This document shows, piece after piece, positions 12,305 through 63,463 of a stretch of 64,000 nt of DNA (position 1 is the first letter of the stretch; each line of letters starts with the position of its first letter). Source of the stretch: a virus. Taxonomy: Duplodnaviria; Caudoviricetes. The notes beneath the pieces were generated by a model. The model was not told the DNA's origin, searched no databases, and worked only from the letters and a program-made list of their open reading frames with translations. The translations under genes and the position numbers were made by a program. The stretch covers positions 32,001-96,000 of the IMG/VR virus record IMGVR_UViG_2654587994_000003; one strand, written 5' to 3'.

Positions 12305-12961
12305 TCACGCCGCGTCCTCCAAGTGCCAGTGCAGGAAAGCATCAAGCTGGCGATGCAAATCCACGATGTCACCGATGTTGTGGATCTCGACGTCGGCACC
12401 ACCACACCCCGCCTCGCTCTCATGCGATCCTGCAATACCGCCACGACCGACAAGCTGCCAGACCACGCCACCGAGCTTGCGAACCTCGTCGGCTTCGTTC
12501 GGGAAGCGGCAGTCATCGACGACTACGCAGCCGCCAAACGCAAGCACGCCGTCTACGCGTGAGCGCCAGAGGTTTGTCCAGAAGTCCTCCCCCATGCACT
12601 TGCGGCCCCATTCAGTGCCAAGCGTTTGCATAGCGTAGCGAGGCGTGCGTCCGGACAGCATTGCAAGGTCGGTTTCTTTGTGCGCTCCTTCGATGTGGCC
12701 TTCACCAAGACCTATGGCCCGCAACATGTCTTTCAGCGGCCCTGCGAACTTCACCAGTTGGTATCCGTGCCTCTCAACCAGGTATTTGCTGGCCGTGCTC
12801 TTACCGCTGCCAGCAAGGCCGGTGAGCGCGATGACGGTTGGCAGACTGGTGCTAACCTTCCCAATCGCCGCGCCGAGCGCGCGCAGTTCTGCTGGCACAT
12901 TATCGTTCGCCGGTACGGCTGTGAGGCAGCCGGTGTCTTTGGATGTGATTGCGTCTACCAT
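12305..12961 (-). CDS. Deoxynucleoside monophosphate kinase
   Basis: P-loop GLAGSGKS, FAGPLK, R.AMQ.LGTEWGR, DDCRFPNE, H.SE motifs. Confidence 0.9.
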   Translation of the reverse strand: MVDAITSKDTGCLTAVPANDNVPAELRALGAAIGKVSTSLPTVIALTGLAGSGKSTASKYLVERHGYQLVKFAGPLKDMLRAIGLGEGHIEGAHKETDLAMLSGRTPRYAMQTLGTEWGRKCMGEDFWTNLWRSRVDGVLAFGGCVVVDDCRFPNEADEVRKLGGVVWQLVGRGGIAGSHESEAGCGGADVEIHNIGDIVDLHRQLDAFLHWHLEDAA

Positions 12962-13218
12962 AAATCCTCCGAATAGAGCTGGGGGCCATTGGTGGCCGAT
13001 TTGATTTGGCCTGCCGCATGCGCGAGATAGAATGCCTCAACGCGGTTCACGAAACGACCTCTATCTGTGATGAATCCTTGCGCCTGAGGCGTCGCCACCG
13101 CGCCATCTATGCTCATTTGGGTGTCCATCGTTTGGATGATGGTGTGATGTCTGGCAGGCGGCGGGAGCGAAATCGTTGCGCCGAACTGGATTGCCGCGGC
13201 GGCTATACGCTCTAGCAT
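12955..13218 (-). CDS. Conserved phage hypothetical protein
   Basis: RHH...QGFITDRGRFVNR.EA...A..AGQ...LYSEDLW, a pattern recalled from phage hypotheticals. Confidence 0.7.
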   Translation of the reverse strand: MLERIAAAAIQFGATISLPPPARHHTIIQTMDTQMSIDGAVATPQAQGFITDRGRFVNRVEAFYLAHAAGQIKSATNGPQLYSEDLW

Positions 13219-13445
13219 TTGTCTGCCTCAGCGAGCGCTTCAAATATTACTTCTTCGTTCAAGTAATTCTCTCGCGCCAGACTTGCGAAATCCACTTCAG
13301 CAGGGCAGTGAACGATCGCCGCTGCAATGGCCTCCCTCGACCGCTGGAGGTATCGAAGTCGCTCTGCTCTTGGCATCCCCATCCACGACCTCTTATCAAA
13401 AGAGGAGTCCGATTTTGCCATCGCTGCAATGACCTTAGCTAACAT
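13212..13445 (-). CDS. Hypothetical phage protein
   Basis: Tightly overlapping operon member. Confidence 0.55.
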   Translation of the reverse strand: MLAKVIAAMAKSDSSFDKRSWMGMPRAERLRYLQRSREAIAAAIVHCPAEVDFASLARENYLNEEVIFEALAEADKC

Positions 13446-13723
13446 ACCGTCTCCTTAATCCTCTTCTTGCCTTCGACATTCGGCTTCACCACCGGCTTAA
13501 ACCGGCGCAGCGCGAACGGTGGATCCTCATCGCCGAACTGCGGACACACGCCACGGTTCACGCCCGCCAGCCTGATGCCGGCGTAATCTCCACCGAGATA
13601 CGTGCGGCACATGCCCACCCACGTCGCCGTGTAGATCTCCCCGGCACGAATGCCGGGGTATTGCTCAGGAAGGGTGGTGTCGTCGACGCAGACGACTTCG
13701 TCGCCGGGTTTGATCGCATTCAA
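13439..13723 (-). CDS. Hypothetical phage protein (SH3-like)
   Basis: KPGDEVVCVDD...G.IYT...F...RF.P pattern; coupled operon member. Confidence 0.6.
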   Translation of the reverse strand: MNAIKPGDEVVCVDDTTLPEQYPGIRAGEIYTATWVGMCRTYLGGDYAGIRLAGVNRGVCPQFGDEDPPFALRRFKPVVKPNVEGKKRIKETVC

Positions 13724-13920
13724 GAGACGGCCTCCTCCCGCGTCATTTCACCAAGGTAGCTCACTGCGATTGGGCACGCGTCGGCGCCTCCCAAAACAGC
13801 ATTCCGCGCTTCTCGAATCCGCCCCTCGTTCACGTATTTGTCGGGCCACCCCATCGTGACGCGCGCAAACGTTCCATTCGCTGCCGCGTAGCTGAACATG
13901 AAATAATGGAGCTTCTTCAA
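13720..13920 (-). CDS. Hypothetical phage protein
   Basis: 4-bp start/stop overlaps on both sides. Confidence 0.55.
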   Translation of the reverse strand: MKKLHYFMFSYAAANGTFARVTMGWPDKYVNEGRIREARNAVLGGADACPIAVSYLGEMTREEAVS

Positions 13921-14648
13921 GCCGCCCTCCCCGCCATCAACGCATCAAACGTCGCCAGGAACTCAAGCTCCGCCTCCTCCGGCGACCAGTACCGCAGCTT
14001 CACGCCCAGCTCTTTCCCGGCGTACCGCGCATGCCACGGCATCTCCCGCAGGTTGACCAGCTCGTCGGCGATGATGCTGTTGTCGGCGTCGTGAACCTCG
14101 CGCGGCAACTCCTTCGGCAAACCAAACCGCGCCGCGATAGCCAGCCAGTTGTCTTGCTCGATCGCACGGTAGTTCGTCAGGTACGGCTTGAGTGGGCGCG
14201 GAATGTCCACGCAGTATGCTTCAGGGGCATCGTGCAGAAGGCCAGCCAAAGCCACCTCCGGCGCGTGCTTGGCTGCAAGGTGACGGGCAATCAGAACTGA
14301 ATGTTCGGCGACGCTGTAGAACTTGATGCAGTGCCCTGCGTAGCGGCATTGCAGGCCGAGCGAATGCGCGATGTCTTCGATGTAGACTTCGTGCGGGCGC
14401 GGCGACATCGGCCAATATTTGCGACCGGTGAAGGTTTGCATGAAATCGCCGGCGCGGGGTGGTTCGGCTGGTGTGTTGCGGGTTAGGCCGATGTATTGTC
14501 CGTTGTCCTGGGACTGAGGACGGTTGTCGTTGGCGGCAACTGGGGTACACCTTGTGCGCTCTTCGCGCAGCGCCATTGCAGCCTTAAAGGTGGCGATCTT
14601 TTTATCTGCGATCTCTCTCGCGTCTATCACTGCAGCGTATGGCATCAA
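13917..14648 (-). CDS. HD-domain phosphohydrolase (YfbR/YfdR-like 5'-deoxynucleotidase)
   Basis: IEDIAHSL...CRY.GH...FYSVAEHS, LLHDA.EAY..DIP.PLK motifs. Confidence 0.88.
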   Translation of the reverse strand: MMPYAAVIDAREIADKKIATFKAAMALREERTRCTPVAANDNRPQSQDNGQYIGLTRNTPAEPPRAGDFMQTFTGRKYWPMSPRPHEVYIEDIAHSLGLQCRYAGHCIKFYSVAEHSVLIARHLAAKHAPEVALAGLLHDAPEAYCVDIPRPLKPYLTNYRAIEQDNWLAIAARFGLPKELPREVHDADNSIIADELVNLREMPWHARYAGKELGVKLRYWSPEEAELEFLATFDALMAGRAA

Positions 14649-15073: not shown

Positions 15074-15279
15074 TCTTGTCTCCTCAGTGGCGGTGGTTGA
15101 CCGCCAGTTGGTAGCTGGCGGCTGGTTGGGGATTGCTGGGGAAGTCGCTGTATAAATGCTAAAAAAACCCGAATTTGCCGGTTGTTTCGGTGGTTATCCC
15201 CCATTGGCAATTGACCTTCGGCCCGTAGGGAGTCCTTATTGCCATTGTGGTGCCAGCGAATCTTTCACTGGAGCACCAA

Positions 15280-15433: not shown

Positions 15434-16687
15434 TCACGCCACCGCCCTCGCCGGCTCATTGTCATTGGCCGCCGCATATCGCCCCGCGACCATCTCCGGA
15501 CGCAACGTGGCGCGGGCAACTTCGCCGAAGCGGCGAGAATACGTGATAACTTTGGCAGACCGGCCCGACAGCCATCCGCCGCCAGCAGCGTATGCGTCAG
15601 GCGCGGCAAGCGTTTCGTGGCGCTCGACATACATCAGCGCCGACTTGCGGCCCTCATCGCTGTGCAGGTGCCCGACATGCGCGAAGGCGTACTTCGATGC
15701 GCCGAACATTTCGCGGAACATGCCTGCCAACGTCGCATCGACCTGGGCCACGCCACGCTTATGGCCGTGGTGATAGAACAGCGCTGTGTCGCCCCACTTG
15801 TAGGCGTAATAAAGCATAGGGCTGGTATCGACCGACACGCGCGGCTCGTTCTCGTAGATCGTCGCCAACAGCTCGCGAACCCATACGGACGAGGCCGGGT
15901 CATGGTTGCCCGAAGCCATGACGACGTGAACGTGCTTGTGCTTTTGCAACAGCATATCAACGACGCGACGCAGAGTGCGAATAACGACGCGGACCACCTT
16001 ATGCAGGCGGGAATCGGCGTCGAGAACGTGCTTATGCGCAGGCGTCACGCTCTCAAGAGCGTCATGGTGCAAGAGGTCGCCGAGCTGCGCGAGAACAGCT
16101 GTGTGCGCCTGCGGAGCGCCAGCCACAGCGGCGGCAAACCAATCCAGCAGCAACTGTTCGGCCAGCCTTAGATCGTAGTCGGCGCCCGTTTCCTCGCGAT
16201 GGGCCAGCATGCCAAAATGGCTGTCGGTCACAACGAACTGGTTGAGGAGGTCTTCTTCGATGTGCTGCGGCGCAGGCATTATCGTGATGCGAGGCAGATT
16301 TTCCTTGAGGCCGTCGACAACGGCGCGGAACGCGGCCAACTGCCCTTCGGCATCCACCGCCGTCTTCTGCCACTGCTGGATAACGCGCCCCTCAGCATCA
16401 ACGAGGGCAGACACACCTTTGACGACGTGGCCAGTCGGCACCGCGAACTTCTCGCCCCGTTCCGGCGTCTGCTGGATGAACGTGCCGCTCGGAGTGTTGC
16501 TGATACGGCTTATGCGAAAGCCAGGAAGGACAGGCTCCGTGCCAAGAAGGCCAGCTTCGGCGGCGCGTTTGATGCTCTCGGCAAGAGCGGACTTGCCGAT
16601 GCCAAGCACGGCGGCAGCCTTCACGAGCGTGCCGTGCTCTTTGTAGGCATCGGCTCTCCGGCGTAGTTCTTCTATGGGTAGAGGCAT
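15434..16687 (-). CDS. Calcineurin-like metallophosphoesterase with N-terminal HTH
   Basis: D.H.G, GD..H.D, GNHD, HHGH, GHLH motifs; start at MPLPIEE after GAGGAG. Confidence 0.8.
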   Translation of the reverse strand: MPLPIEELRRRADAYKEHGTLVKAAAVLGIGKSALAESIKRAAEAGLLGTEPVLPGFRISRISNTPSGTFIQQTPERGEKFAVPTGHVVKGVSALVDAEGRVIQQWQKTAVDAEGQLAAFRAVVDGLKENLPRITIMPAPQHIEEDLLNQFVVTDSHFGMLAHREETGADYDLRLAEQLLLDWFAAAVAGAPQAHTAVLAQLGDLLHHDALESVTPAHKHVLDADSRLHKVVRVVIRTLRRVVDMLLQKHKHVHVVMASGNHDPASSVWVRELLATIYENEPRVSVDTSPMLYYAYKWGDTALFYHHGHKRGVAQVDATLAGMFREMFGASKYAFAHVGHLHSDEGRKSALMYVERHETLAAPDAYAAGGGWLSGRSAKVITYSRRFGEVARATLRPEMVAGRYAAANDNEPARAVA

Positions 16688-16739
16688 GCAGTCTCCTCGA
16701 TGTGGTGGTGAAGGCCGCTTGGTGGGCGGCCTGATTATT

Positions 16740-17405
16740 TTACTTACGCGCCAGCAACTCACAAACCGCAGTCGAAGGCACGACATAGCCATAGCCAACC
16801 AGCGAGCCTGAGAAGCCAATAGGCGCAGCCATGACGCCAACAGTGATGCCGATCAGGTCGCCGTTGTCTGCGTAGACGGGTCCGCCTGACTGGCCCATCA
16901 CAGTTGTGATGTCTGTCACATAGACCGATTTCCAAGGACCTGTTTCGCGGGACTCGCCAGCGATCTTTCCGTATGCGGCAACGAATTCGATTTTCAGAGG
17001 ATTGCCGTAAGCAACGATAGGATCGCCAACATTCACAGCGTGGCAGGCCAGTTTTGCGACGCCGAGGCCGTCCGACGACGTACGCAGCAGTGCAATGTCA
17101 TTGGCTTTGTTGACCCAGAGGACATCAGCCTTGCGAAGAGCTCCGCCCTTCGCTTTCAACTGAACTTCCTTCGCGTCGCCGACGACGTGCGCAGCAGTGA
17201 CTATGAAGCCATCGCCGATATGAACGCCGGAGCCGTGGCCGTTTTCAAGCTGGATTTTAACGGTGGCTGTTTCTGTTGCTGCGGGTGTTGGTGGAGGAAG
17301 GAGCGCATAGGCGGCCGCAGATGTCGCGGCGATGACGAGGAATAAAGCAACGAGGAATGCTGTTGGCGTACGCCGCGACGCGGCATGCAGGAATCGTCTG
17401 AGCAT
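16740..17405 (-). CDS. Trypsin-like serine protease with N-terminal membrane anchor
   Basis: GSG, TAAHVV, DIALL, GQSGGP catalytic motifs. Confidence 0.9.
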   Translation of the reverse strand: MLRRFLHAASRRTPTAFLVALFLVIAATSAAAYALLPPPTPAATETATVKIQLENGHGSGVHIGDGFIVTAAHVVGDAKEVQLKAKGGALRKADVLWVNKANDIALLRTSSDGLGVAKLACHAVNVGDPIVAYGNPLKIEFVAAYGKIAGESRETGPWKSVYVTDITTVMGQSGGPVYADNGDLIGITVGVMAAPIGFSGSLVGYGYVVPSTAVCELLARK

Positions 17406-33369: not shown

Positions 33370-33731
33370 CAAGATCGCCTTGCGTTTCGACGCTGGGCGG
33401 ACGCAATTGCTTCCTCGACACGCTTCGCAAAAGTCGAATTCAATTCATCCAGCTTGCGGCGTAGTTCGGTCATCTGTTCGGCGCACGCTCCGCCCACATC
33501 ACATAATGATACGATCTTCACCGGCAGAGGCTCGACAACGTGCTCGGAGATAGCAACGGCCTCCATGATGATGAACGATTCGCCCGGCTCTAAGCGAGCG
33601 CGACGATCAGCCTCTTTTTTGGCTCCATCCAACTCGTAGTGGACAAAACTGTCAGAAGCATAGATTGCGTAACCATCATCCGCCACATACGGCTTGCCAA
33701 CGACAACGTAAGCTTTCATTGTGTTCCTCAT
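33369..33731 (-). CDS. Hypothetical protein inserted in the tail operon
   Basis: ORF coupled to Dit by TGATG; no motif recognised. Confidence 0.5.
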   Translation of the reverse strand: MRNTMKAYVVVGKPYVADDGYAIYASDSFVHYELDGAKKEADRRARLEPGESFIIMEAVAISEHVVEPLPVKIVSLCDVGGACAEQMTELRRKLDELNSTFAKRVEEAIASAQRRNARRS

Positions 33732-40373: not shown

Positions 40374-40715
40374 TCAGGCCGCCACTACTGCGGCAGTAGG
40401 CGCGCTTGTGACGGGCACGCTGCCCTTGTCATTGGTGGCTGTGACGCGAACCGTGATGGCCTTACCAACGTCGCCGGCGACCGGCACATATGTAGCCGCA
40501 GTGGCGCCAGAAATCGCGACGCCAGCAGCAAACCACTGCCGCGCGTAAGTCGGCGAGCCGGACCATGTGCCGGTTGTCGACGTCAGCGTCTGGCCAACCT
40601 GTGCGGTGCCTGTGATGGCAGGTGCAACAGAATTCACCGGTGAGCCGATACCGTTGACGATACCAGCGCCGATATAGGATGCTACCCTGCGCTTACGAAC
40701 CTTCGTTGACAGCAT
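40374..40715 (-). CDS. Ig-like domain protein (possible virion decoration)
   Basis: P.N..AP.ITGTAQVGQTLT...GTW...QW...G.AI.GAT..TY....DVGK.ITV.VTA.N. Confidence 0.75.
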   Translation of the reverse strand: MLSTKVRKRRVASYIGAGIVNGIGSPVNSVAPAITGTAQVGQTLTSTTGTWSGSPTYARQWFAAGVAISGATAATYVPVAGDVGKAITVRVTATNDKGSVPVTSAPTAAVVAA

Positions 40716-43348: not shown

Positions 43349-44578
43349 TTATGCAGCGCGCGCTGCTGGCGTTGGCGCCGGAGTTTCTGTCTTGCCGAGC
43401 GTATCGAGGCGCGTCATCGTGCCATTCACGATGGCTTTGTTGCCGCCGTCGACTGGCGCCTTGTCTTCGTAAGATCGAGCCTCATCGACGAGGTAGATGC
43501 CGTTCGTGACCATCTTCGACAGGAATTCTGCTCGCGCCGTGCTGTCGCCGCGCAAGAGCTCTTCCATGTTGAATTTCACCTTCGTGGTCTTCCTGGTCTT
43601 TGCGTCCAGCAGGTCACGATAGATTGCCGCCTCGATGCGCTTGAGCATCGGTCGCATGCAGGTCTTGGTGAATTGGAGGATCAGTTGCTCGATGCCGCTG
43701 CCCCAGGTGGTCGTGCCGTTGGCTGCGTGCCCGATCATAACTGGCGGCACGCCGAAGATGCGGCAGATCTGCTCGACGCTGTACTGCCTCGCCTCCAGGA
43801 ACTGAGCGTCCTTGGGGTTGATCGACATCGGATAGGGCTTGAAGCCAGCCTCCAATACCGTCACGCCGCCAGCCTTCTCGGCGCCCGCGAACTGCGTCAG
43901 TGTGTCGGCGATCTGTTTGCGTTGCTCAGGCTTTAGGATCTGATCCGAGCTGACAATGAGAGACGAAAGCAGGCCGTTCTTGAACATCCGGCCAGCGACC
44001 TTTTCGCCTGCCAATGCACTCCCGACCGTATTGCGCACAACCGCGATCGGCGACATGCCACGATCACAGCCCGGCAGTCGGACGCCGCGGACATGAAACA
44101 TCTTGCCTTCGGGCACACGGCGCTTTTTGCCGTCTTCCGTCACCTCGTAGTGGCGCGTATTGCGACCGTCTTTCGACCGGCACACATCAACGCTAAGAGG
44201 GTGAAGTGGGTTGAGCGCAACGAGGCGCTCGCCGTTCATCTTCTTTTCCGCGAAGAAGTTGCCATCTAGCAGCAAGCACATCGCTGCCATCGACCAGAAC
44301 TCTGGCGCCGTGTCGTCCATGTTCGGCATGTCGTGCAGAAGCTCGTAAAGCGGAGCGTTCTTATCGACCGTCACGCCGTCCTCGCCGTAAACGATGCAGG
44401 GAAGCGTGCCGGCCGCGTTCTGCACGAGGTTGACGCACGCCCAAACCGCATCAAGCGACAGGGAACTCTCAATTGTGACTGTCTCCCCGGACGTGGTGCC
44501 GAGGCCAAAGAAGCCTCGCCAGAACTCGCCGTCGGTGAGCTTGATAGGCCTTCCGACCCATCTCTCAAAAAAGCCCAT
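43349..44578 (-). CDS. Portal protein (HK97 family)
   Basis: AVWACV, H..PN, LL.GN, G.SPI, DAQFLE.R...VE.ICR.FGVPP, LLRGD motifs. Confidence 0.95.
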   Translation of the reverse strand: MGFFERWVGRPIKLTDGEFWRGFFGLGTTSGETVTIESSLSLDAVWACVNLVQNAAGTLPCIVYGEDGVTVDKNAPLYELLHDMPNMDDTAPEFWSMAAMCLLLDGNFFAEKKMNGERLVALNPLHPLSVDVCRSKDGRNTRHYEVTEDGKKRRVPEGKMFHVRGVRLPGCDRGMSPIAVVRNTVGSALAGEKVAGRMFKNGLLSSLIVSSDQILKPEQRKQIADTLTQFAGAEKAGGVTVLEAGFKPYPMSINPKDAQFLEARQYSVEQICRIFGVPPVMIGHAANGTTTWGSGIEQLILQFTKTCMRPMLKRIEAAIYRDLLDAKTRKTTKVKFNMEELLRGDSTARAEFLSKMVTNGIYLVDEARSYEDKAPVDGGNKAIVNGTMTRLDTLGKTETPAPTPAARAA

Positions 44579-47735: not shown

Positions 47736-47812
<77 letters not shown>

Positions 47813-47944: not shown

Positions 47945-48889
47945 CTATGCTGCGCGGTCACGGAAACGGCTGAGTGCCAACTCTGCTAACCTTGCCTCGC
48001 GTTTATCGATCTCCTGCCACCTAATGCTCACAGTGCCTATTGCCATGCCAACCAATGCGCGACCAGCAACAGCTGGCTTCAAGACCTCACCCCTGCGCTT
48101 TCCTATTTCGGAGTAGCTCTGGCCGCCCAACACCGCATCCTCGAAAGGTTCGACCAGCGGTCCTAGTGACGACCGAAGCTCCGCCAGGATCGGTTTGGCG
48201 TCGATATATTCATTCAGGATTTCATCGGTGATCTTCACGTGTAAGCTTTCCGTCTTGATCACACTGCCTGAAGCCACGTTGTCGTTGGCTGCGACCACAG
48301 TCCTCCGTGGCGGTATCGAATGCGATCCCTTGCTCTTCTTGACCTTCGTAGAGATTTTGATCTCGCCACTCGGCATTTCCTTCCAGTCGGACGCGGCGGC
48401 TCGGTCAATGTCCGATTCTGGCGTAAGGCGTTTGGTTTCCCTGACCACCTCCCCTCCGTCAGCCTTGCTGTAGTCCAACCCTTTCAGCGGCTCAGCCTCA
48501 CAAAGCGCCACAAGCCGGCGATATCGAAGGACGACAGCTACAAGATCCTCACGCTCATCACGGCGAAGCGCCTCAAGCAACGGAAAGTCCTCGCCGCGGC
48601 TCTGAACACAAGAGGGATCACCAATCGACTGCCGCTTCACTATCGCCCTCCGAACCTTCGCCATTTTCCTCGCCTCGTCAGCCGCTTTGGCTTTTGCTCG
48701 TTCTCTGCCTGCCGCCCTCTCCTCTGCAGTCTGCGGGATTTTGAGAACGTCTCTTGTTTTGGTTTCCTCGATTGGCTCCCACTTTCCATCCACCTTACGG
48801 AAGCGAGTGTTGGTCCTGTATGGATGCGGCTGGTCGCCGGTGAAGGCTACCCTGCCAGTGGCGTCGATGATCTGGTCTTCCTCGTTCAT
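47945..48889 (-). CDS. Hypothetical protein, possible late-gene regulator
   Basis: C-terminal HTH-like 'G.SYSEIG'; position just upstream of tRNA/HNH/terS. Confidence 0.6.
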   Translation of the reverse strand: MNEEDQIIDATGRVAFTGDQPHPYRTNTRFRKVDGKWEPIEETKTRDVLKIPQTAEERAAGRERAKAKAADEARKMAKVRRAIVKRQSIGDPSCVQSRGEDFPLLEALRRDEREDLVAVVLRYRRLVALCEAEPLKGLDYSKADGGEVVRETKRLTPESDIDRAAASDWKEMPSGEIKISTKVKKSKGSHSIPPRRTVVAANDNVASGSVIKTESLHVKITDEILNEYIDAKPILAELRSSLGPLVEPFEDAVLGGQSYSEIGKRRGEVLKPAVAGRALVGMAIGTVSIRWQEIDKREARLAELALSRFRDRAA

Positions 48890-48926: not shown

Positions 48927-49400
48927 TTACGTTGGATGATTGTCGTTATCGGCCAGCCATCCTTTGACGAGTGCCACTGCCTTGTCGGCCGCTTCTGTCG
49001 TGGATGTGAACCGCACCACTTCCACTGGGTGCCCTAGCCGCGCCAGCGACGCATGCCGCTCAACCTGAGCCGGAGACAGGCGGCCTTTGCCGACTTTGTT
49101 CTCGATCATCCGCAGGGTGCCGCCCTTGAGGTAGATCCGCAGGTCAGCTTCTCCCGGCGTCATGCCAGTTGCGATTGCGTCAGCCTGGGCCCGTGGCCCG
49201 CGCTTCGCGCTGTTCATGTCGCCTGCCAGCAGGAACTGGCGGCCGTACTCCGGCAGCGACCGCAGGGCGCGAACCTGGGCCGCCTGCCCTTCACTTTCCT
49301 TGATGGGTGCGTCTGCGACAGTGACCTTGCCTTTTGGCGAAGTACGGATGACGACGCGCTTGCCATTGATGCGGGTGGTTTGGCTTGTGGCTCTGCCCAT
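48927..49400 (-). CDS. VRR-NUC domain nuclease
   Basis: E...Q, G...G.ADL, IENK...GRLS..Q...H..L..LG..V.V motifs; start at MGRATS. Confidence 0.85.
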   Translation of the reverse strand: MGRATSQTTRINGKRVVIRTSPKGKVTVADAPIKESEGQAAQVRALRSLPEYGRQFLLAGDMNSAKRGPRAQADAIATGMTPGEADLRIYLKGGTLRMIENKVGKGRLSPAQVERHASLARLGHPVEVVRFTSTTEAADKAVALVKGWLADNDNHPT

Positions 49401-49504
49401 GGGCGTCTCCTCGTGGTGCGGTGTCGTGGTGGCGACACACTTACTTTCCGAGAGACGAGCGAAAACGGGTAGTCGAATTTGAAAATATTTTTGGGTGAGC
49501 ATCA

Positions 49505-49700
49505 GGTTGCACCCGGACCGCCCCTCTGGCCGGTGCACGTTGCCCGAATAAATCATCTTGAGAACCGTGCGCGCGGCACACCGCCCTGCACGGTTGCACG
49601 TGTAGGGGTATATATAAATATATACCCTACTAAACGTGCACTAACCGGGCAGCGCTGTGCAGGTGTCTCCGCCCGGACGTGCACAGTTACTGCACGGATA
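49505..49700. other. Putative phage replication origin
   Basis: About 8 TGCAC/GTGCA repeats flanking the AT-rich near-palindrome GTAGGGGTATATAT-aa-ATATATACCCTAC (49602-49630). Confidence 0.55.
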
Positions 49701-52392: not shown

Positions 52393-54615
52393 TCACGCCG
52401 CCCTCACAAACACCGCCAACTCTCGCCGCACAGGATCCCGCTCCTCCCGCTCGACAAGCGCGCCTTCACGCATAAGGGCGCCCACAAGGCTGGCCGCCCG
52501 CTTGCGCTGCACGTTGTCGTCCAAATCCAGCCCCACAGCGTACGCTACAGCGCCTCCGACCCAGTTCTTGGCCTTCGGTGACTTCTTGTAGTCGGACGCG
52601 CTTACGGCCGCCAGGATGGACGCGCGCTGGTCTTCCGTGAGTTCGCCCGCTACTTCCGCAGCGCTTGGCCACTGCCACTCCGTGACGACCGGTGCGAAGT
52701 CCTGCGGCTGAGCAAGGCCGGTCCCGTTTCCAAGCGGCGTCGAGACGAGATGGCGCCACTCGGCCTTGTGCGAAAGCGGCGTCAGGTTCGACTTGCCATA
52801 GGTGGTGTAGAAATAGCCGAAGCGGTCAGCCTTATCGATACCAGCCTCGCCTGCCTGCTCCTCTGACATGCGGTTCAGGACGCGCACCGAACGCGCCGCG
52901 CCTATCAGTGACACCGCACCACGCGCATCTTCAACCGTCGCCTCTCGGTCAGCGACCTTGCGAAGGTGGTGCACGATGTCGATTGAGCAGTTGGTGTAGT
53001 CAGCAATTTGGGCCCAAAGCTTCGCCACCTTGTCGATCGCACCGTTGTCGTTCTCATTGACGCCGTGCGTGGACACGAACGGATCGACAATCATGACGTC
53101 GATGCCATTGCGCTCGATCTGCTCGACCACCGCCTCGACGATCGGTTGCTGAATCCGAACGCCAGCCTTCTTGTCCTCGATGGCGACGCACAGTTCCTGC
53201 TCACGACCGCTGTCCAGGAAGAGATGGCCTTCGAGGTCGGCAGGCTTCAGTTTGTAGTGGATGCAGGCCGCCATGATGCGCCGCTCCATTTCGTCGCGCG
53301 GATCCTCGGCGTTGAATATCCACGTGCGCAGACGCTTCGGCGGCTTGGTGCCAAGCAGCGCCCTGCCCGACACCATGGCAAGCGCCTCAGCGATGCTGCT
53401 GGACGTCTTGCCTAGGCCGCCAGGCGACACCGTGACGGACACGTATTTGCGGATGAAGTGCGAGCCGTATGCGAACTCACGGCGCGGCAGTGTCTTGGGA
53501 TCGATCCACTTGAAGGCAGTTGCGGTGATGGGTGACGGAGGCGTGTTGTCGTTGGCGGGCTCGATATCACCAGCGGGTGATACGACTTCCTGCTCGGGAA
53601 TATCCGTGCGGTTCTGCGGCACGGCTTCCACCACGACATCCGCTTCCACCGCAGCCGCCTGCTCGCGCAGCCTGCCTTTTTCAAGGCCTCGCTGGATCAT
53701 CCGCGTAATGTCCACCAGACGCGTGTTGTCGTGCGCCGGGAAGTCGGGCTCAGGAATGTGGCGCGGGTTCTGGATGCCAGCCTTAAGACCGTTCTCGATG
53801 GTCTTGCAGCAGCGCGACCAGTCCCTGCCCCAGCCGCGAGCAACGTCCTGTAGCAGCGCACGCGCCTCCGCCTCGCTAAGTGCACCAGCGCCGACGATAG
53901 TGCCGATTGAGAACGCGGCATCGTTGAGCGCATTGTTACGCGTCCCCATGGGAGCGCCAGCAAGGTCCGCCAGCTCACGGTCGACGGCGGCATCCACATA
54001 AGCGTTGTTGGTAGCTGCCGACAGGCTGTACTGCGTGTGAGCGGGCGCCGACTTCGGCAGCAGCAGGTCAAGCAGCCAGGCCGGCGCGTCCGCGATTTCG
54101 CGCGTGTCTGTTTCCCACTTGTATGATCGCCCATTCGCCATCGTGCTGCCAGCGGCCAGCACGTAGCCGCCCTCGGACCGGATATCGACGCCAGCACCAA
54201 GCGCGCCGCGGTTGCGCGTGCCCACGACGTACTTGAAGTAGATATGCAGCCCGCCGTTTGGGCTCGTAACGCGTGCCGTGTCTGGCAGCGGACCGTGCTC
54301 CGCTTCCATCTCGGACAACCAATCGAAGCCATTCGCGCCGCCGGGCTTATTGTCGATGTCCAACGCGAAGAAGCCCGTCTTTTCGCCCGTCGGAAGGCCA
54401 ACGGCGGCATCCGGCCAATCCGACCACCATCTCTCGATGATGCGCGGAAAACGCGTCGCGCCCTTGAAGCCATTGGGCGTCAAAGGCGTCTTTTCGCCAA
54501 GCGTAATGATCTCGCCGGTTGCCTGGTCGACGTGTTCCTCGGCGTGTGAGCGGCATGGAAATACGGGCCAGCCTTGGGCGACGTAGTATTGCGCTAATTC
54601 AAGCGGGGTTTGCAA
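52393..54615 (-). CDS. Bifunctional Prim-Pol fused to AAA_25 (RepA-like) helicase
   Basis: GWPVFPC, LDID, SPNGGLH.Y, DIRS.GGYV; PGGLGKTS Walker A, IVDP, IVHH.RK motifs. Confidence 0.92.
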   Translation of the reverse strand: MQTPLELAQYYVAQGWPVFPCRSHAEEHVDQATGEIITLGEKTPLTPNGFKGATRFPRIIERWWSDWPDAAVGLPTGEKTGFFALDIDNKPGGANGFDWLSEMEAEHGPLPDTARVTSPNGGLHIYFKYVVGTRNRGALGAGVDIRSEGGYVLAAGSTMANGRSYKWETDTREIADAPAWLLDLLLPKSAPAHTQYSLSAATNNAYVDAAVDRELADLAGAPMGTRNNALNDAAFSIGTIVGAGALSEAEARALLQDVARGWGRDWSRCCKTIENGLKAGIQNPRHIPEPDFPAHDNTRLVDITRMIQRGLEKGRLREQAAAVEADVVVEAVPQNRTDIPEQEVVSPAGDIEPANDNTPPSPITATAFKWIDPKTLPRREFAYGSHFIRKYVSVTVSPGGLGKTSSSIAEALAMVSGRALLGTKPPKRLRTWIFNAEDPRDEMERRIMAACIHYKLKPADLEGHLFLDSGREQELCVAIEDKKAGVRIQQPIVEAVVEQIERNGIDVMIVDPFVSTHGVNENDNGAIDKVAKLWAQIADYTNCSIDIVHHLRKVADREATVEDARGAVSLIGAARSVRVLNRMSEEQAGEAGIDKADRFGYFYTTYGKSNLTPLSHKAEWRHLVSTPLGNGTGLAQPQDFAPVVTEWQWPSAAEVAGELTEDQRASILAAVSASDYKKSPKAKNWVGGAVAYAVGLDLDDNVQRKRAASLVGALMREGALVEREERDPVRRELAVFVRAA

Positions 54616-55894: not shown

Positions 55895-56124
55895 GCCTGC
55901 GCCTCCGCCCATTCGACCCACGCCAGCAACTTCTCTGCAGGAAAGCTGCTAAGACGGCTGCCATCATCCTTGATCTGCAACAGGTATCCGCGCGGGAACC
56001 TGGGCGGTGGCTTGAAGCCTTCTGGCAAAACCAGCGAAACGCTGGCCTTGCTCTCATCCAGACCTAGTTCGCGCGCACCGGTAAGGCTTGCGTTGCAAGC
56101 TTCTTTCATCTCGGCCGAGGTCAT
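55891..56124 (-). CDS. Hypothetical phage protein
   Basis: ATGA overlaps on both sides. Confidence 0.6.
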   Translation of the reverse strand: MTSAEMKEACNASLTGARELGLDESKASVSLVLPEGFKPPPRFPRGYLLQIKDDGSRLSSFPAEKLLAWVEWAEAQA

Positions 56125-57179
56125 GCTGCCACCTTGGCAACAGCATGATTATCGTTGGCGGCAGAGAACAGATCGGCCACCGGCTGCTCTTTCGTGCCAA
56201 GCGACGCGATGTTCTTCACTGCCTGACGGAAGTATGAAGGCTTGAGCTCGAAGCCGACGCCCTTGCGGCCCATCTCGACGGCTGAATAAACCTCGCTGCC
56301 AATCCCGAGGAACGGCGTAAGCACTGTCTCACCGGGCAGGCTCCACAGATCAATGCAACGTTCGATCACGTCCAGCTGCAAAGGCGAGATATGCTGTTCG
56401 TCTTGCTCATCTCGGGCGGATCGGTATTGCAGTGTGCGTGTTTGGCGAATGTCGCTCCAAACCGGCGATGCGTATCGCTGCCAGACGAATACGGAGCGCC
56501 ACTGCTCGAAGCTCCAGGGCGTGCGACCATCGGCAATTGTTTCTGCGGCGTGACGGTCATAGGCCTCGCGGCTGATGTCGAGACTTTCGTCGCCCACCCA
56601 CATATCGAACATGCCATCGACCGGTTCAGAGTTTTCGCCCGGCTTTCGGAACGAGACGATGTAGTCGGCAAGCCCCTGCCCGCTGATGCAGCTGTCCTTC
56701 GTGATCTGCTTGTGCAGCAGGCGAATGGATTTGGTGCGCTGCTGGGCAACTACCGGGTCTTTCCAGATGCAGACTTCGGAATGAAAGATCCAGCCGGCGT
56801 CCTCATAAGCACGGATGATCTCACCGCGGAAATCGCGCATGCCGATAAAGCCGTTGCGTCTCTTGCTCGTCGGCAGCTGCATGCAGTGAACGCTATGAAT
56901 GCGTCCCGGTTTTGTGACGCGCAACAGTTCTTGGATAAGAAACGCGTAATGCTCCCAGAATGCGCCGCCCTCATTGTTGCTGATGTCGCGGTCAAAGCTC
57001 GAAAACTTGTAGAGGCCTTCGAACGGTGGAGAGTGGATGCCGAAATGCACGCTGTCACCAGGGATAGCGCGAATGAGCTCACACGAGTCACCTTCGTAAA
57101 TGGCGTAGTTGTCGGTGATGACCTGGTTCACGGCGTTGATGTCGGCGGTCAAGGCCGCAGTATTCTGTGCGTTCGTCAT
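56121..57179 (-). CDS. DNA methyltransferase (N4/N6, beta class)
   Basis: SPPF motif IV precedes H..PLQ and VLTPFLGIGS motif I. Confidence 0.92.
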   Translation of the reverse strand: MTNAQNTAALTADINAVNQVITDNYAIYEGDSCELIRAIPGDSVHFGIHSPPFEGLYKFSSFDRDISNNEGGAFWEHYAFLIQELLRVTKPGRIHSVHCMQLPTSKRRNGFIGMRDFRGEIIRAYEDAGWIFHSEVCIWKDPVVAQQRTKSIRLLHKQITKDSCISGQGLADYIVSFRKPGENSEPVDGMFDMWVGDESLDISREAYDRHAAETIADGRTPWSFEQWRSVFVWQRYASPVWSDIRQTRTLQYRSARDEQDEQHISPLQLDVIERCIDLWSLPGETVLTPFLGIGSEVYSAVEMGRKGVGFELKPSYFRQAVKNIASLGTKEQPVADLFSAANDNHAVAKVAA

Positions 57180-58588
57180 TATGCGGCACCTCCTAGCCAT
57201 GATGGGATTTGCATCGGGATTTTCGGGTCGTAGCTAGCCTTCTCACGCGCCTGCGCATTGATCGCCTGCTTGGTGATATTGGCTGTGTGGAGCACCATCG
57301 CTGCGGCCATGCGGTCGGCGTCGGCCTCCTTGCGCTTAAGGTTGGCAACCACAGCGCCTTCGGTCTCGGCGGCGATAAAGTGAGCTGTGACCTCTTTCTG
57401 CTGCCCAAACCGGTAGAAGCGGCGAACCGCCTGATGGATCTGCTCGAAGCTATCGTTGAGACCAACAAATCCAGTGTCTGCACAGTGCTGCCAGTTCATG
57501 CCGAAGCCAGCGATCGAGGGCTTGGTTACGAGCACGCGAATCCGGCCTTCGCTGAAGTCGATGAGCTTGCGCTCCTTCACATCCTCTTTATCCGAACCGC
57601 GCACTTCGACCGCGCCGGGGATGGCCTTGGTCAGAGCCTCGCTCTCGGCGTTGAGATTGCACCACCACACGAAAGGCCTGTCCTTCGGCGTCATCGCGGC
57701 AGCGAAGGCTACGCGATCATCCACACTGTCACGACGCGCCTTGATGCGCTCTTGGAGCGTCGATGCACGGCTGCCCACGAGATCACCGACAGCAACGGGA
57801 GCTGTCACCGTGTGGTGAATTTGATGCAGCGCCGGCAGCAAATAGGCGCCATCGTCGTATCCAAGATCGGAAGGCTTGCGAAGCATGACTGCCCACGACG
57901 CCATCCAGCGCCAGAAGTCGTTTTCGGCGTGACCTTTGAGCCGCCACTTCTGCGTTTCCCCGCCGTCGTGAGTAAAGAAGGTCGCTAGCATGTCGGAGTA
58001 GGACATGATGCCGAGAAATTCAGCGTGGTTGCCAAGCTCCATAAAATCGTTCGGTGCAGGCGTAGCAGTAGCAGCCAGCCGGAACGGTATGCCGTGGCAC
58101 GCCTCGACTAGCTCGTTGCGATAATGGCCAGTCTCGGATTTCAGAATGCTGCTCTCGTCGAGAATGACGCCAGAGAACTGCGACAGGTCGAAAGCATCAA
58201 TCTTCTGATAGTTCGTGACGTTAATGCCTGAGCCGATGTCTGACTGTGATCGCACGTGTCTGGCGGGGATGCCGAACTTCTCAGCCTCGCGCACCATCTG
58301 CGCCGCGACTGCCAGAGGCGCGAAATGTAGGACATCGCCCTGTGTCGACGCACTGACCGCCTGCCCCCACGCAAGCTCCATGAAGCTCTTGCCGAGGCCA
58401 GTGCCGGCGAAGAGCGCAGCGCGGCCACGCTTGAGAGCCCAGGTCACGATGTCGCGCTGGAACGGGAATAGCACCGATGGAAGATCTGGAATCTCGGTTA
58501 GACCCGTCGGCGGGTCTAGAATGGCTTTTCTAGCCAAGAACGCAGCATAGGCGTTCGCTTGCGCACTGAGCGCAACATTCATGTTCAT
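57179..58588 (-). CDS. SNF2-like helicase
   Basis: FQ...V.WA, GLGKS, LDESS, TATPAPND, GFGMNWQ, Q..RR.YRFGQ motifs. Confidence 0.9.
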   Translation of the reverse strand: MNMNVALSAQANAYAAFLARKAILDPPTGLTEIPDLPSVLFPFQRDIVTWALKRGRAALFAGTGLGKSFMELAWGQAVSASTQGDVLHFAPLAVAAQMVREAEKFGIPARHVRSQSDIGSGINVTNYQKIDAFDLSQFSGVILDESSILKSETGHYRNELVEACHGIPFRLAATATPAPNDFMELGNHAEFLGIMSYSDMLATFFTHDGGETQKWRLKGHAENDFWRWMASWAVMLRKPSDLGYDDGAYLLPALHQIHHTVTAPVAVGDLVGSRASTLQERIKARRDSVDDRVAFAAAMTPKDRPFVWWCNLNAESEALTKAIPGAVEVRGSDKEDVKERKLIDFSEGRIRVLVTKPSIAGFGMNWQHCADTGFVGLNDSFEQIHQAVRRFYRFGQQKEVTAHFIAAETEGAVVANLKRKEADADRMAAAMVLHTANITKQAINAQAREKASYDPKIPMQIPSWLGGAA

Positions 58589-59442: not shown

Positions 59443-59970
59443 TCACGCCACCCTCACCGACAGCTGCTCACCCGCCTCGCCCATCTTTGCGCCGCGCACC
59501 TTCTTGCCAGCCTGCAACGCCTCCTTGATGGCGGTCTTGTCGGGCGATGTCGAAACGCGCACGTAAGCCTTTGGCAACGCGGCTTCGTCGATGATCTCAA
59601 CCGATGCAGCCTTCTTGCCGATGGATATCGTCGCCTCGGCCAGCGGCACGCGCGGCACGCCGGCAGCCTTCAGCAATTTTAACATCAGGCTTCGCATGGC
59701 CTCCTTGCGTCGCTCTGCGCGCGACTTGCGCGCTTGCAGATCGGAAATGCGGAGCGCAACTGACTTTGCCAGGCTGTCGGCGTCGCGCTCGCCGTTGACG
59801 AGGCGCGTCAGGACGGCGTGGAAGTTGGTCTCTCCTTCCAGCATGTCTGCGCGCAGTTCTTCGTCTGTCTCAAGCTCCGGATAAGCGGCCAGCATGTCGG
59901 CGAAAAGCGCTTCGAGGTTGGCGACGTCGGCGGCCAAATAGTTGTCGTTGGCGGATCTTCTCTCGCTCAT
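59443..59970 (-). CDS. Siphovirus Gp157 family protein
   Basis: D.LEGET, S.EI.DE..LP..Y.....PDK.AIK.AL..G..V.GA motifs. Confidence 0.88.
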   Translation of the reverse strand: MSERRSANDNYLAADVANLEALFADMLAAYPELETDEELRADMLEGETNFHAVLTRLVNGERDADSLAKSVALRISDLQARKSRAERRKEAMRSLMLKLLKAAGVPRVPLAEATISIGKKAASVEIIDEAALPKAYVRVSTSPDKTAIKEALQAGKKVRGAKMGEAGEQLSVRVA

Positions 59971-60592: not shown

Positions 60593-60624
60593 AATCGTCG
60601 GCGGGGCAGAGCCCCGCCTTTCCC

Positions 60625-62379
60625 CTAAAATGGCACGTCATCGTCCATCAACACCCGCCAATCCTCTTCTTCCGGCGCGTTGTCATTCGCCGGCGACACG
60701 CGATTATCATTGGCCGCTCCAACCACGTGACCCACGACATCCCAGTATTTCTGGCGCGGCTTCACCGTGATCTCCACCGTGTCGGCCAGCTCTGACTGAC
60801 GCTCAATCCACTCCAGAACCGTCTTGGGAAACGGCATCTTGCCGCCATGCGCGCGCCAGTAACGGTCGGCCTTTGACTTCGGGAATCCGCTATGTTGCGG
60901 GCAAACCCACTCGTTGATCGCCGTCATGCCGACCATGTAGCTGACCTTCACCGACGGCGGCTTATCGCCCTTCCCTTCGTGGTAGTAGAAGCTACGCGAA
61001 GTGACGGTGCGGGGTTCTGGTTCTGCCGTCGACATGATCGGCGTATCAGCAGCCGTCGCCGTAATCTTAGGGCTGTCATCGATATCGAACTCATAGCCGC
61101 AGCAAGAGCACGTGCGCGCTGAGGCATGCACCTTCTCGCCACAGCCGAAGCGACCATTCTTGTCCTCGACGTCGAACGGGCAGACCTTCACTGGCGCTTC
61201 CCCGTCGCCCTTGTTGGGCGTCTTTGGCTGCACCATGTCGACCGGTCCGTGCTTGTCGACGAGACCGGCGAAGTCCAGCACAAGGCACGAGGGTTTCGGA
61301 CCAGCCTTAATCGCGGCAATGCGCCCCTGAGGCGTGTCGAGAGGCATGCCAGGCGCGTATATCACGCGAGTGCCGCGGCCCATCATCTGCACGTACAGCG
61401 AAACTGACAACGTTGGCCGAAGGGCAGCAATCAGGTCGACACCCTTGTGATTAAATCCGGTGGTCAGAACCGAGTTGTTTGTCAGCGCGCGGATCTTGTA
61501 GGACTTGAAGTCCTCGATAATGCGACGGCGCTCATCCTTCGGTGTTTCGCCGCTAATCATCTCGCAGGAGATGCCGCGTGAACGAATCTCGTCACGCACA
61601 TGCTCGGCGTGCTCGACGCCGGAGCAGAAGCAAAGCCATGACTTGCGGTCGGCGCCCTTTGCGACGATCTCATCGACGGCGGAACGCGTGACGTCCATCT
61701 TGTCCACGGCAGCCTGCAGCGCGGACTGCTTGTAGTCGCCGCCCTGCCTTCCGACGCCCTTCATGTCGAAGGTCGTGGCAGTGGCCTTGGACGAAAGCGG
61801 CGCGAGATAGCCGTCAGCAACGCCGTCGGCGATGCCATAGGTGTAGACGATCTGGTCGAACAGCCGATCGTCGCCCTCATCCAATCGGCCTGTATCCAGC
61901 CGGTAAGGCGTGGCGGTGAGGCCTAGGATTTTCATGTCGGGATTGATGGCACGCAGGGCCGCGATGAAGCGACCGTACATCGTGTTGCTGTTGGCGGGGA
62001 TCAGATGGCACTCGTCCACCATCAGCACGTCGATGTGCCCGATGAGCGCAGCTTTGCTGTGCACGGTCTGAATGCCGGCGAAGATGATCTGGCTGCGCGC
62101 GTCACGACGGCCAAGGCCGGCCGAGAAGATCCCCGCCGGAGCAAATGGCCAAATGCCGAGCAGCTCAAGGTAATTCTGCTCGATTAGCTCAGCGACATGG
62201 GTGGCGACAAGGATGCGCATGTCCGGCCAGCCTTCAACCAGCCTCTTGATGAGCGAAGCCATGAGCAGCGACTTGCCGCAGCCGGTGGCAAGGTCGACGA
62301 GCGGATTGCCGGCCGTCGTTGACCAATAGTCGAAAACGGCGTTTTCTGCTTCTTCTTGGTAGTGGCGCAGTTGGAGCAT
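60625..62379 (-). CDS. DEAD/DEAH SF2 helicase (RadD/YejH-like) with Zn finger
   Basis: LR.YQ, TGCGKS, DECH, TATP, LTTGF, QM.GRG.R motifs. Confidence 0.92.
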   Translation of the reverse strand: MLQLRHYQEEAENAVFDYWSTTAGNPLVDLATGCGKSLLMASLIKRLVEGWPDMRILVATHVAELIEQNYLELLGIWPFAPAGIFSAGLGRRDARSQIIFAGIQTVHSKAALIGHIDVLMVDECHLIPANSNTMYGRFIAALRAINPDMKILGLTATPYRLDTGRLDEGDDRLFDQIVYTYGIADGVADGYLAPLSSKATATTFDMKGVGRQGGDYKQSALQAAVDKMDVTRSAVDEIVAKGADRKSWLCFCSGVEHAEHVRDEIRSRGISCEMISGETPKDERRRIIEDFKSYKIRALTNNSVLTTGFNHKGVDLIAALRPTLSVSLYVQMMGRGTRVIYAPGMPLDTPQGRIAAIKAGPKPSCLVLDFAGLVDKHGPVDMVQPKTPNKGDGEAPVKVCPFDVEDKNGRFGCGEKVHASARTCSCCGYEFDIDDSPKITATAADTPIMSTAEPEPRTVTSRSFYYHEGKGDKPPSVKVSYMVGMTAINEWVCPQHSGFPKSKADRYWRAHGGKMPFPKTVLEWIERQSELADTVEITVKPRQKYWDVVGHVVGAANDNRVSPANDNAPEEEDWRVLMDDDVPF

Positions 62380-62930
62380 ACGAAATTCCAGACCTTGAGA
62401 TAAACGATTGGATTGCAGGGTTATCTGCGCTCGCCGCTATGCTCGCGGCTGCTTTTGCTTTCTCGTCGGCCCGCCAAGCCAAAAGACAAGCGGACGCGGT
62501 TCTCGGAGACGTAGAGCCTGTATTCAGCGCCTATCAGCTACCAGACGATGGGAAAAACTATCGCCACAGGGTCGCCATCGAGATAGTCAACCACAATCGG
62601 CTACCGCTCTATGTCCAAAGCATCAGGTTGGAGTACCCTGACTGGGTGCTTATTCACCGTGGAGCGGAAGAGGTTCGCGATCTTGTTGCCGCACTTTACG
62701 ACGTAGTCATCGAGAAAAAGCGTGAGCACGTATTTGACGTTCCTTTCCGTCTCGCTGGGCGCTTCTCGAGTGATATGCCTGCAGTATCCACAAGCGTTTT
62801 CAATGTGAGATTTCTCGACCAGAACCAGCAGGGCGGTTTTGTACTAGGCTTCATCGTCCATTATCGCATGCATGGATCGAAGCGGGTTCGAGTTGCGTTT
62901 GCCTCGACAGGATTCGACGTTTTGGACTAA
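62319..62930 (+). CDS. Membrane-anchored hypothetical protein (moron), start uncertain
   Basis: W...LSALAA..AA..A..SA..A.RQA pattern; antisense between the sigma-like and helicase genes. Confidence 0.55.
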   Translation: MTNSRKRRFLLLLGSGAVGAYEIPDLEINDWIAGLSALAAMLAAAFAFSSARQAKRQADAVLGDVEPVFSAYQLPDDGKNYRHRVAIEIVNHNRLPLYVQSIRLEYPDWVLIHRGAEEVRDLVAALYDVVIEKKREHVFDVPFRLAGRFSSDMPAVSTSVFNVRFLDQNQQGGFVLGFIVHYRMHGSKRVRVAFASTGFDVLD

Positions 62931-63463
62931 CCAGCCTCCCGCAGCAGCCCAAGCACCCTCGCCCGCTCCTTGATGACGATCTGGCGAACGCGCTCTTTGG
63001 TGAGGCCGTGGTCATTGCCGATGGCCTCCAGCGTCTCGCCCATCGCCCTGCGCATCAGCATCGTGCCATTCCGGCCTTCCAGCAGGGAGACAACGCGCGA
63101 TAAGTCGGTGCCCTCCTCCTGGTGCGGATCAGCAGAACCCGGCAGCTCTTCGAACGCGGAGAGACTGCAGACCTCAGCGGACCGCGACTTGGTGGAATTT
63201 GTGCGAACGAATTCCTGCGCCGTACCCCGAACACAGAGGACGGCCCATGTCCAAAAGGTCTCAAGCCGGCATTCCCGATGACGGCGCAACATGACGACCA
63301 TCGCCGACTGAAAAAGTTCGTCGGCCGCGTCTTCGTTCTTGGTGATCTTTCGCGCCAGTCTTCGTAAAGCCGGCTCGTAGGCCAGAAGCTTGCGGTCGAA
63401 CTCGGGACTGCGCAGATTGTTATCATTGGCAGCGACAAGCGGCGTGCGTGCAACAAGCGGCAT
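62927..63463 (-). CDS. ECF-like sigma factor / HTH transcriptional regulator
   Basis: L.R.A..IT.N.D.ADEL.Q (region 2), GETLE.IG...GLTKERVRQI (region 4). Confidence 0.8.
   Translation of the reverse strand: MPLVARTPLVAANDNNLRSPEFDRKLLAYEPALRRLARKITKNEDAADELFQSAMVVMLRRHRECRLETFWTWAVLCVRGTAQEFVRTNSTKSRSAEVCSLSAFEELPGSADPHQEEGTDLSRVVSLLEGRNGTMLMRRAMGETLEAIGNDHGLTKERVRQIVIKERARVLGLLREAG

Follow-up and report, generated by a model that had tools for sequence, protein, structure and literature searches.

In a 64,000-nucleotide stretch of DNA (hereafter the window, bases 32001-96000 of the 108,556-bp IMG/VR provirus record IMGVR_UViG_2654587994_000003), the tetrapeptide ANDN recurs in the non-virion proteins of a prophage. 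We consider it probable that this motif is a genome-encoded, often split, mimic of the ssrA tag encoded by transfer-messenger RNA (tmRNA), which would give its carriers a turnover dependent on the adaptor SspB and the protease ClpXP. The carriers comprise nucleotide enzymes, nucleases, a primase, a helicase, a methylase, an SSB-like protein, a sigma factor and an excisionase-like protein, all of them non-virion. A preliminary description of this DNA, made from the sequence alone, had proposed SsrA-tag mimicry as a way of routing phage proteins through SspB and ClpXP or of titrating SspB. It is the mimicry half of that proposal that finds support: it is backed by the match to the host tag, by the presence of SspB and ClpX in the hosts and by the placement of the motif in tails and linkers, and further by the enrichment of proteins ending in Ala-Ala or Val-Ala (AA or VA) among the carriers, by look-alikes of the whole tag at its native spacing and, for the split form, by the coupled gain and loss of both parts in the Gp157 family.

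Distribution of ANDN in phage and host

A six-frame search finds ANDN eleven times in the window. Ten copies lie on the minus strand (starting at 12899, 14523, 15458, 48278, 53545, 56148, 59941, 60679, 60703 and 63419), in stop-to-stop frames of 199-753 codons and preceded by A (6), P (3) or S (1); all ten were found, in frame, where the preliminary description had placed them. The eleventh match, at 33696 on the plus strand, has L before it in a frame of 48 codons and looks like a chance match. The codons of the motif vary at their third positions only (GCC/GCG, AAC/AAT, GAC/GAT, AAC/AAT) and the flanks of the copies are unrelated, in agreement with the earlier claim that what is conserved is the peptide, with third codon positions left free.

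Open reading frames (ORFs) were called crudely, as the longest ORFs, and include some antisense shadows. Among the 136 crude ORFs of the whole record (33,355 amino acids (aa), a set without three small conserved ORFs), ANDN is the most over-represented tetrapeptide of all, with 12 copies vs 0.234 expected (Poisson 4.5e-17), and AAND comes second. Overall, the record holds 17 in-frame copies across 14 proteins, where about 0.23 would be expected. Seven of these copies and five of the carriers are situated just right of the window; the count of nine carriers given earlier was correct for the window and an undercount for the record. Two copies each are found in the helicase, in a 116-aa protein and in an excisionase-like (Xis-like) protein.

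Five of the 17 copies lie in the first 45 residues of their proteins, eight in the last 35 and four in interior linkers, outside every Pfam domain match and outside the PHROG exonuclease and Gam-like matches. Such a location in linkers and tails could also suit cleavage sites for a phage or host endopeptidase, which would trim the tails or separate domains (e.g. the primase from the helicase), and the phage does encode a head maturation protease. Nonetheless, we regard this as very improbable: no copy occurs in the proteins that such a protease normally cuts, the removal of 4-10 terminal residues has no obvious use, and the AA ends and the identity with the head of the host tag would be left unexplained. 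The virion and packaging module (tail fibres, tape measure, major head protein, protease, portal, and terminase large and small subunits; 25933-47153, minus strand) accounts for 6,671 of 19,893 aa and holds none of the 17 copies (P about 0.001).

The stretches of host sequence examined are similarly devoid of the motif. There is no ANDN in the host flank of the record (47 ORFs, 13,465 aa), nor in 320 kb of sampled host DNA (96,427 aa in 317 crude ORFs), where 0.53 copies were expected. The absence from virion and host genes noted in the preliminary description is thereby upheld, and ANDN is not equally frequent in host, structural and non-virion proteins. One Agrobacterium pusense genome gives 43 DNA matches, 20 of which fall in a 54-kb prophage and one in the tag-coding part of ssrA, leaving 22 over the other roughly 5.2 Mb; a backwards control pattern gives 10 matches in the same genome. 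ANDN is a trait of the phage and not of the host.

The motif is also kept in relatives. Across 14 related prophage loci and this record we counted 111 ANDN copies (in frames of at least 80 codons), corresponding to 106 distinct contexts. Family alignments of the primase, helicase, sigma factor, methylase and Gp157 all present ANDN as a conserved island amid variable, indel-rich tails or linkers. For the primase (15 members, one a fragment), ANDN and the following x-P are kept in at least 60% of the rows within a linker stretch of 42 columns before a conserved I.A, and the only other columns of the stretch shown that reach this level are two scattered prolines. Judged from the alignments, the island bears the mark of purifying selection acting on a short linear motif. 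Because counts pooled over orthologues depend on one another, we relied on counts per genome and per family and on trees. A candidate second motif, ENDN (pooled count of 17 in the related prophages), was rejected, since its copies belong to a conserved helicase motif, VNENDNG, that recurs from one orthologue to the next.

These data also bear on whether the copies arose by chance or reflect a property of the DNA itself, which might be a repeat or a binding site, for example, or an artefact of codon bias. The same 12-mer, GCCAACGACAAC, does occur in 5 of the 11 window copies, but 11 DNA matches to GCNAAYGAYAAY are present in the window and none of 100 dinucleotide-preserving shuffles reaches that number (mean 0.22, largest 2). 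Moreover, variation is restricted to wobble positions, 10 of the 11 copies are in frame on the coding strand with unrelated flanks, and the peptide is conserved across orthologues while neighbouring residues change. Taken with the rank of the tetrapeptide, these results refute such an origin, and its probability is practically negligible.

Likeness to the host tag and coupling to C-terminal alanines

The closest relatives of the primase-helicase, at 87-95% identity, are found in genomes of Agrobacterium burrii, A. pusense, A. tumefaciens and A. rosae, and more distant ones occur in Neorhizobium, Shinella (71%), Rhizobium and Limoniibacter. By this likeness the host is therefore an Agrobacterium-type alphaproteobacterium. 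The tmRNA tag is ANDNNAKEYALAA in the four Agrobacterium genomes holding the 87-95% identical prophages and ANDNYAEARLAA in Shinella. All five prophage-holding genomes have a two-piece alpha-type tmRNA, SspB (PF04386) and the zinc-finger domain of ClpX (PF06689), and in all five the genes for SspB and tmRNA share a strand and lie about 260 nt apart. The SspB proteins have an invariant C-terminal tail after a variable linker.

In the class at large, tmRNA was found in 60 of 61 sampled genomes (a tally that takes in one unpublished genome, G045, which contributed nothing else to the analysis). Of 29 tmRNA loci from an even class sample given to ARAGORN, 27 could be read: 25 of the tags start with ANDN and all 27 end in AA, with 6-9 variable residues after ANDN (8-9 in the tags of prophage-holding hosts). 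The two that do not start with ANDN are AKSDYAEYALAA and a 25-residue tag starting AKDS. The comparison with the host ssrA-encoded tag suggested in the preliminary description is thus favourable, as host-type tags start with (A)ANDN and end in AA; on the sequences compared, the two parts of the tag that are invariant throughout the class are the ANDN head and the AA end, and it is exactly these that the phage motif copies.

The native alphaproteobacterial tag (Caulobacter AANDNFAEEFAVAA) shares this (A)ANDN head and Ala-Ala end with the phage motif, and its spacing is shared by two proteins here and by 26 of 104 copies in relatives. The two differ in how they come about, since tmRNA attaches the native tag to broken proteins during their translation, whereas the phage motif is written in the genes of intact proteins. 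Furthermore, the phage motif is often split between an N-terminus or linker and the C-terminus, and often has Pro for Ala at the residue before ANDN (-1) and at the second residue after it (+2).

The C-terminal endings quoted in the preliminary description were correct for seven of the nine window carriers, and the suggested co-occurrence of ANDN with a C-terminal AA was found. Nine of the 14 carriers end in AA (7) or VA (2), against 6 of 75 non-carriers (Fisher p=1.1e-5; this count includes three small conserved ORFs entered by hand and leaves out two overlapping calls) and against 20 of 317 host ORFs (p=1.3e-7). When counted per protein family across 15 related prophages, the table of ANDN vs AA/VA ends reads 10/8/9/58 (p=4.9e-4). 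Distances between ANDN and the C-terminus show a peak at 7-10 residues; the 26 of 104 distinct copies already mentioned make up this peak, with 20 ending in AA and 2 in VA. Native spacing (6-9 residues after ANDN) is seen in 2 of the 17 copies of the record, those of the methylase (8) and the exonuclease (7), the other copies being split.

The split form can be followed in Gp157. Among the best 150 Gp157 sequences from a search of 1.84 billion representatives, three have an N-terminal ANDN and all three end in RVA, whereas among the other 147 three end in VA and none in AA, the usual end being R-V/T-K (p=3.6e-5). In a tree of 56 rows, the ANDN rows fall in one supported clade of 11, and the two rows of this clade that lack ANDN also lack the Ala end. 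Parsimony gives three coupled events, at least one of which is forced by well-supported branches, so that the independent events are few. As reconstructed from the tree, the joint gain and loss of N-terminal ANDN and C-terminal VA supports the split form. In our view, no other line of evidence distinguishes a tag mimic from docking motifs of other kinds as well as this C-terminal coupling does.

An Ala-Ala end is also seen in six ANDN-free proteins of the prophage, one of which is the portal (window 43349-44578, 40374-40715 and 57179-58588; L001:3222-3995, 4800-5693 and 5690-5971). These ends may be either ClpX-only degrons or neutral endings.

Possible readers and uses of the motif

SspB-alpha binds the ANDN head of the tag, and ClpXP drives the cell cycle in alphaproteobacteria. 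In the mechanism that we propose, host SspB would bind the ANDN head of a phage protein and tether it to ClpX, on which the conserved C-terminal tail of SspB would dock. ClpX would take hold of the C-terminus by its Ala-Ala or by a weaker Val-Ala, with decay dependent on SspB in the latter case, and ClpXP would then degrade the carrier. The likely benefit would be that early-lytic proteins leaked in lysogens are cleared; after induction, a saturable decay route shared by all early proteins could act as a timer. SspB is reported from Caulobacter and Escherichia coli alike (PMC8138137), and the E. coli SspB domain is described as binding the first seven tag residues and tethering substrates to ClpX (PMC9963277). 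Solved SspB structures include 2QAS/2QAZ and that of the Agrobacterium orthologue, 2NYS.

A link with lysogeny is suggested by RHph_X2_25 and RHph_X2_26, phages isolated on Sinorhizobium americanum whose replication genes are homologous to those of this prophage. RHph_X2_25, with an annotated integrase and repressor, has 20 in-frame ANDN copies, 11 of them in proteins ending in AA and one in a protein ending in VA. RHph_X2_26 has none in six frames of its 68,522 bp, and it gave no tyrosine-integrase match (serine integrases were not searched); all its genes are on one strand, its primase ends in TLRA, its helicase keeps an IPF tip only, and 4 of its 114 crude ORFs end in AA. Its homologous replication genes lack ANDN; in this family of hosts, these enzymes can therefore function without the motif. 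Instead, ANDN seems to go with the lysogenising lineage, in a contrast of one integrase-less phage with two temperate ones (0 vs 17 and 20 copies), and its absence from an integrase-less relative of the same host species fits a lysogeny-linked role.

The motif extends beyond the close relatives. An IMG/VR scan with GCNGCCAACGACAAC, one GC-rich coding version of AANDN, and with its reverse found at least 118 and at least 119 loci, respectively. Among the 118 seeded loci listed, 28 have at least two in-frame copies and there are 167 copies in 1.08 Mb, vs 3 in-frame copies in the control loci listed (1.06 Mb). Several ANDN-rich viral contigs share 0-2 proteins with this phage, some of them with complete tag-like tails. 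A host-encoded reader is therefore favoured, and a reader shared among the phages is argued against.

Several observations weigh against tag mimicry. In the 106 contexts the residue at -1 is A in 52 and P in 37, and at +2 it is P in 44 and A in 13 (+1 is free), whereas in native tags the residue at -1 is invariably the Ala that tmRNA itself carries, and at +2, among the 25 ANDN-type tags, it is Ala in 16 and Pro in one. Five of the 14 carriers (the helicase, sigma, SSB-like, 125-aa and Xis-like proteins) have no AA or VA end. In the host sample no dipeptide is found at the C-terminus more often than AA (16 of 317, 5%), and AA alone is therefore no strong death signal there. RHph_X2_25 has one ANDN at about residue 22 of its annotated major capsid protein (L355:3393-3404, record 53393). 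Finally, the E. coli-type head AANDENY is not enriched in IMG/VR, with 8 matches vs 28 for the reversed control; at this seven-residue stringency, tag copying would not be a general phage habit.

The prolines at -1 and +2, like the five carriers that lack an Ala-Ala end, would be easier to accommodate if ANDN were a docking motif for another reader, be it a host protein or a phage hub gathering replication and nucleotide enzymes, with the likeness to the tag coincidental or secondary. Most carriers handle DNA, and the same phage clearly docks via another short host motif, the SSB tip on its helicase. This explanation leaves unexplained the AA/VA coupling, the native spacing and the joint gain and loss in Gp157, and in RHph_X2_26, a phage of the same host species, the homologous replication proteins do without the motif. 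We consider another reader unlikely.

Alternatively, the ANDN heads could be decoys that soak up SspB after induction, sparing tmRNA-tagged proteins, or others that SspB would otherwise deliver, or jamming ClpXP, while the carriers themselves are not degraded. The many copies, with two each in the helicase, the 116-aa and the Xis-like proteins, and the several carriers without an Ala-Ala end would agree with this, as would the reported saturability of SspB-ClpXP (PMC12013620). Decoys fit less well because they need no co-selected C-terminal AA or VA, nor the native spacing. To edit 14 enzymes would cost more than to make a single small, abundant decoy, and the integrase-less RHph_X2_26, from the same host species, has no ANDN, though host takeover should matter to it at least as much. 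Decoys are, in our judgement, distinctly unlikely.

If the carriers are indeed degraded through the mimicked tag, a further and speculative step, which we put forward with low confidence, is that the ribosome-rescue tag of the host serves the temperate phage as a switch that acts post-translationally and across the proteome. Early-lytic proteins leaked in the lysogen would all be destroyed via SspB-ClpXP. A rising load of the host's own tmRNA-tagged proteins, or a flood of substrates on induction, would jam this shared, saturable route and stabilise all ANDN proteins together. The phage would in this way read the translational stress of its host as a commitment signal, and its early proteins would be co-ordinated by proteolytic queueing.

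Parts of such a system have precedents. Flynn et al. are said to have described in 2004 that an N-terminal fragment of E. coli RseA is delivered by SspB to ClpXP through an internal SspB-binding stretch far from its C-terminal Ala-Ala. Reportedly, this concerns a single host protein, the binding stretch bears no likeness to the tag head, and cleavage is needed to expose the Ala-Ala. As described, RseA would be a genome-encoded split signal and a natural precedent for the split form in the phage. Among phage proteins, lambda O and the Mu transposase and repressor are substrates of ClpXP. Degrons resembling ssrA have been reported on anti-sigma factors of Mycobacterium tuberculosis (bioRxiv 10.1101/491043). 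As far as these are described, all are encoded proteins with Ala-Ala-type ends read by ClpX, but each case concerns one protein without an SspB-binding head, whereas here 14 proteins of one phage carry the head. The DAS+4 tag has a weakened end, and proteins bearing it are reported to be inactivated once SspB is expressed (PMC3064785). This combination of a tag head with a weakened end gives SspB-dependent decay, and the Val-Ala ends here may act likewise; as described, DAS+4 is man-made, C-terminal only and of the E. coli type, unlike the phage motif. Phage pf16 is reported to encode an SspB homologue (PMC5587285) and so also touches the SspB pathway, but it carries the adaptor, whereas this record carries the presumed ligand of the adaptor; an SspB match sought in the record was not found. 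A literature search at the level of abstracts returned no description of phage-encoded ANDN or ssrA-tag mimicry.

Should SspB read these motifs, a virus would be borrowing a quality-control tag of its host to set the lifetime of a whole class of proteins, and in alphaproteobacteria prophage silence and induction would be tied to trans-translation and ClpXP capacity. The motifs would provide dozens of natural, graded SspB-dependent degrons for the engineering of Agrobacterium and Rhizobium, and a simple sequence marker of early non-virion genes, and perhaps of a temperate lifestyle, in phages of alphaproteobacteria. Phages of hosts whose tags do not start with ANDN would be a natural test of tag copying.

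One of the eight AANDENY matches is native-looking (AANDENYALAA*; L051:13735-13755). The frame that holds it, of 31 codons, is placed right at the end of a provirus contig, and the match probably represents host ssrA at a site of integration.

Individual carriers and prophage boundaries

All window carriers are encoded on the minus strand. The names given to them in the preliminary description were appropriate for the dNMP kinase, the HD protein, the exonuclease (called a phosphoesterase), the primase-helicase, the methylase, Gp157, the helicase and the sigma-like factor. They were not borne out for a late regulator and for a VRR-NUC protein, which are treated below.

In the dNMP kinase (12305-12961, 218 aa), ANDN occupies residues 18-21 (12899-12910) of an N-terminal tail, the Pfam DNMK/AAA matches begin at residue 43 or later, and the protein ends in LEDAA. 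Similarly, the HD-type dNMP phosphatase (13917-14648, 243 aa; phrog_318, 2.5e-66) has ANDN at residues 39-42 (14523-14534) of an N-terminal extension and ends in AGRAA. The DNA-repair exonuclease (15434-16840; phrog_704, 2.7e-126, residues 58-451), whose start may be over-called, closes with AAANDNEPARAVA*, a look-alike of the whole tag in which ANDN (15458-15469) is 7 residues from the end. The other look-alike of the whole tag, of native length, is the C-terminus SAANDNHAVAKVAA* of the N6/N4 DNA methylase (N6_N4; 56121-57200, 359 aa), with ANDN (56148-56159) 8 residues from the end and the Pfam domain ending at residue 329.

An interior copy is found in the hypothetical 314-aa protein at 47945-48889 (residues 201-204, 48278-48289; end RDRAA). 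The label of late regulator given to it is unsupported, as no Pfam, PHROG or named Atlas family match was obtained. The so-called VRR-NUC protein (48927-49556, 209 aa) has matches of endonuclease type in PHROG only; the variant ADNDN reported for it is present (48939-48953), four residues before its C-terminus, KGWLADNDNHPT*, and was excluded from the copy count. In the Prim-Pol and AAA_25 primase-helicase (52393-54615, 740 aa; end FVRAA), ANDN takes up residues 354-357 (53545-53556) of a variable, indel-rich interdomain linker. A structure model of this protein from a 13-row alignment has a mean predicted local distance difference test score (pLDDT) of 53.1, with residues 289-650 all below 50, too poor to separate linker from helicase domain. 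The Gp157 or Mu-Gam-like protein (59443-59970, 175 aa) has the split arrangement, with ANDN at residues 7-10 (59941-59952) and the end SVRVA.

The ResIII/Helicase_C helicase (60625-62379, 584 aa) has both of its ANDN copies (60703-60714 and 60679-60690) in a C-terminal tail. The protein ends in EEEDWRVLMDDDVPF (60625-60650), with MDDDVPF as its last residues, and the SSB of A. pusense ends in FSNDMDDDIPF. The tip reads [IV]-P-F in nine of ten orthologues and I-Q-F in one, and that of RHph_X2_26 is TIPF. By this likeness, the helicase C-terminus is a copy of the C-terminal tip of host SSB, in the same tail as the two ANDN copies. The sigma-70-like factor (62927-63511, 194 aa) has ANDN at residues 28-31 (63419-63430), upstream of region 2, and ends in LREAG, without Ala-Ala.

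Five carriers follow to the right of the window. The SSB-like protein (L001:2461-3039, minus strand) has ANDN and, eight residues later, the near-copy SNDN (AAANDNRRTAASNDNKPAAAAA), a pair that is conserved in relatives. A 277-aa protein has one copy, the 116-aa protein has two and ends in RVAA, a 125-aa protein ends in ANDNGRRR, and the excisionase-like protein, of the helix-turn-helix type, has two.

The prophage is flanked by a 45-bp direct repeat identical to the 3' end of tRNA-Arg(tct). Its first copy, attL, lies at 11607-11651 of the window on the plus strand (record 43607-43651) and marks the start of the prophage. The second, attR, lies outside the window (record 108237-108281, L001:12237-12281) and adjoins a tyrosine integrase (record 106972-108063). 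Because the repeat occurs at both places, the prophage measures about 64.7 kb; it is integrated in tRNA-Arg, and the first 43.6 kb of the record are host flank. A tRNA-Met(cat) gene is present inside the prophage, at 47736-47812 of the window, between the packaging genes and the 314-aa ANDN carrier.

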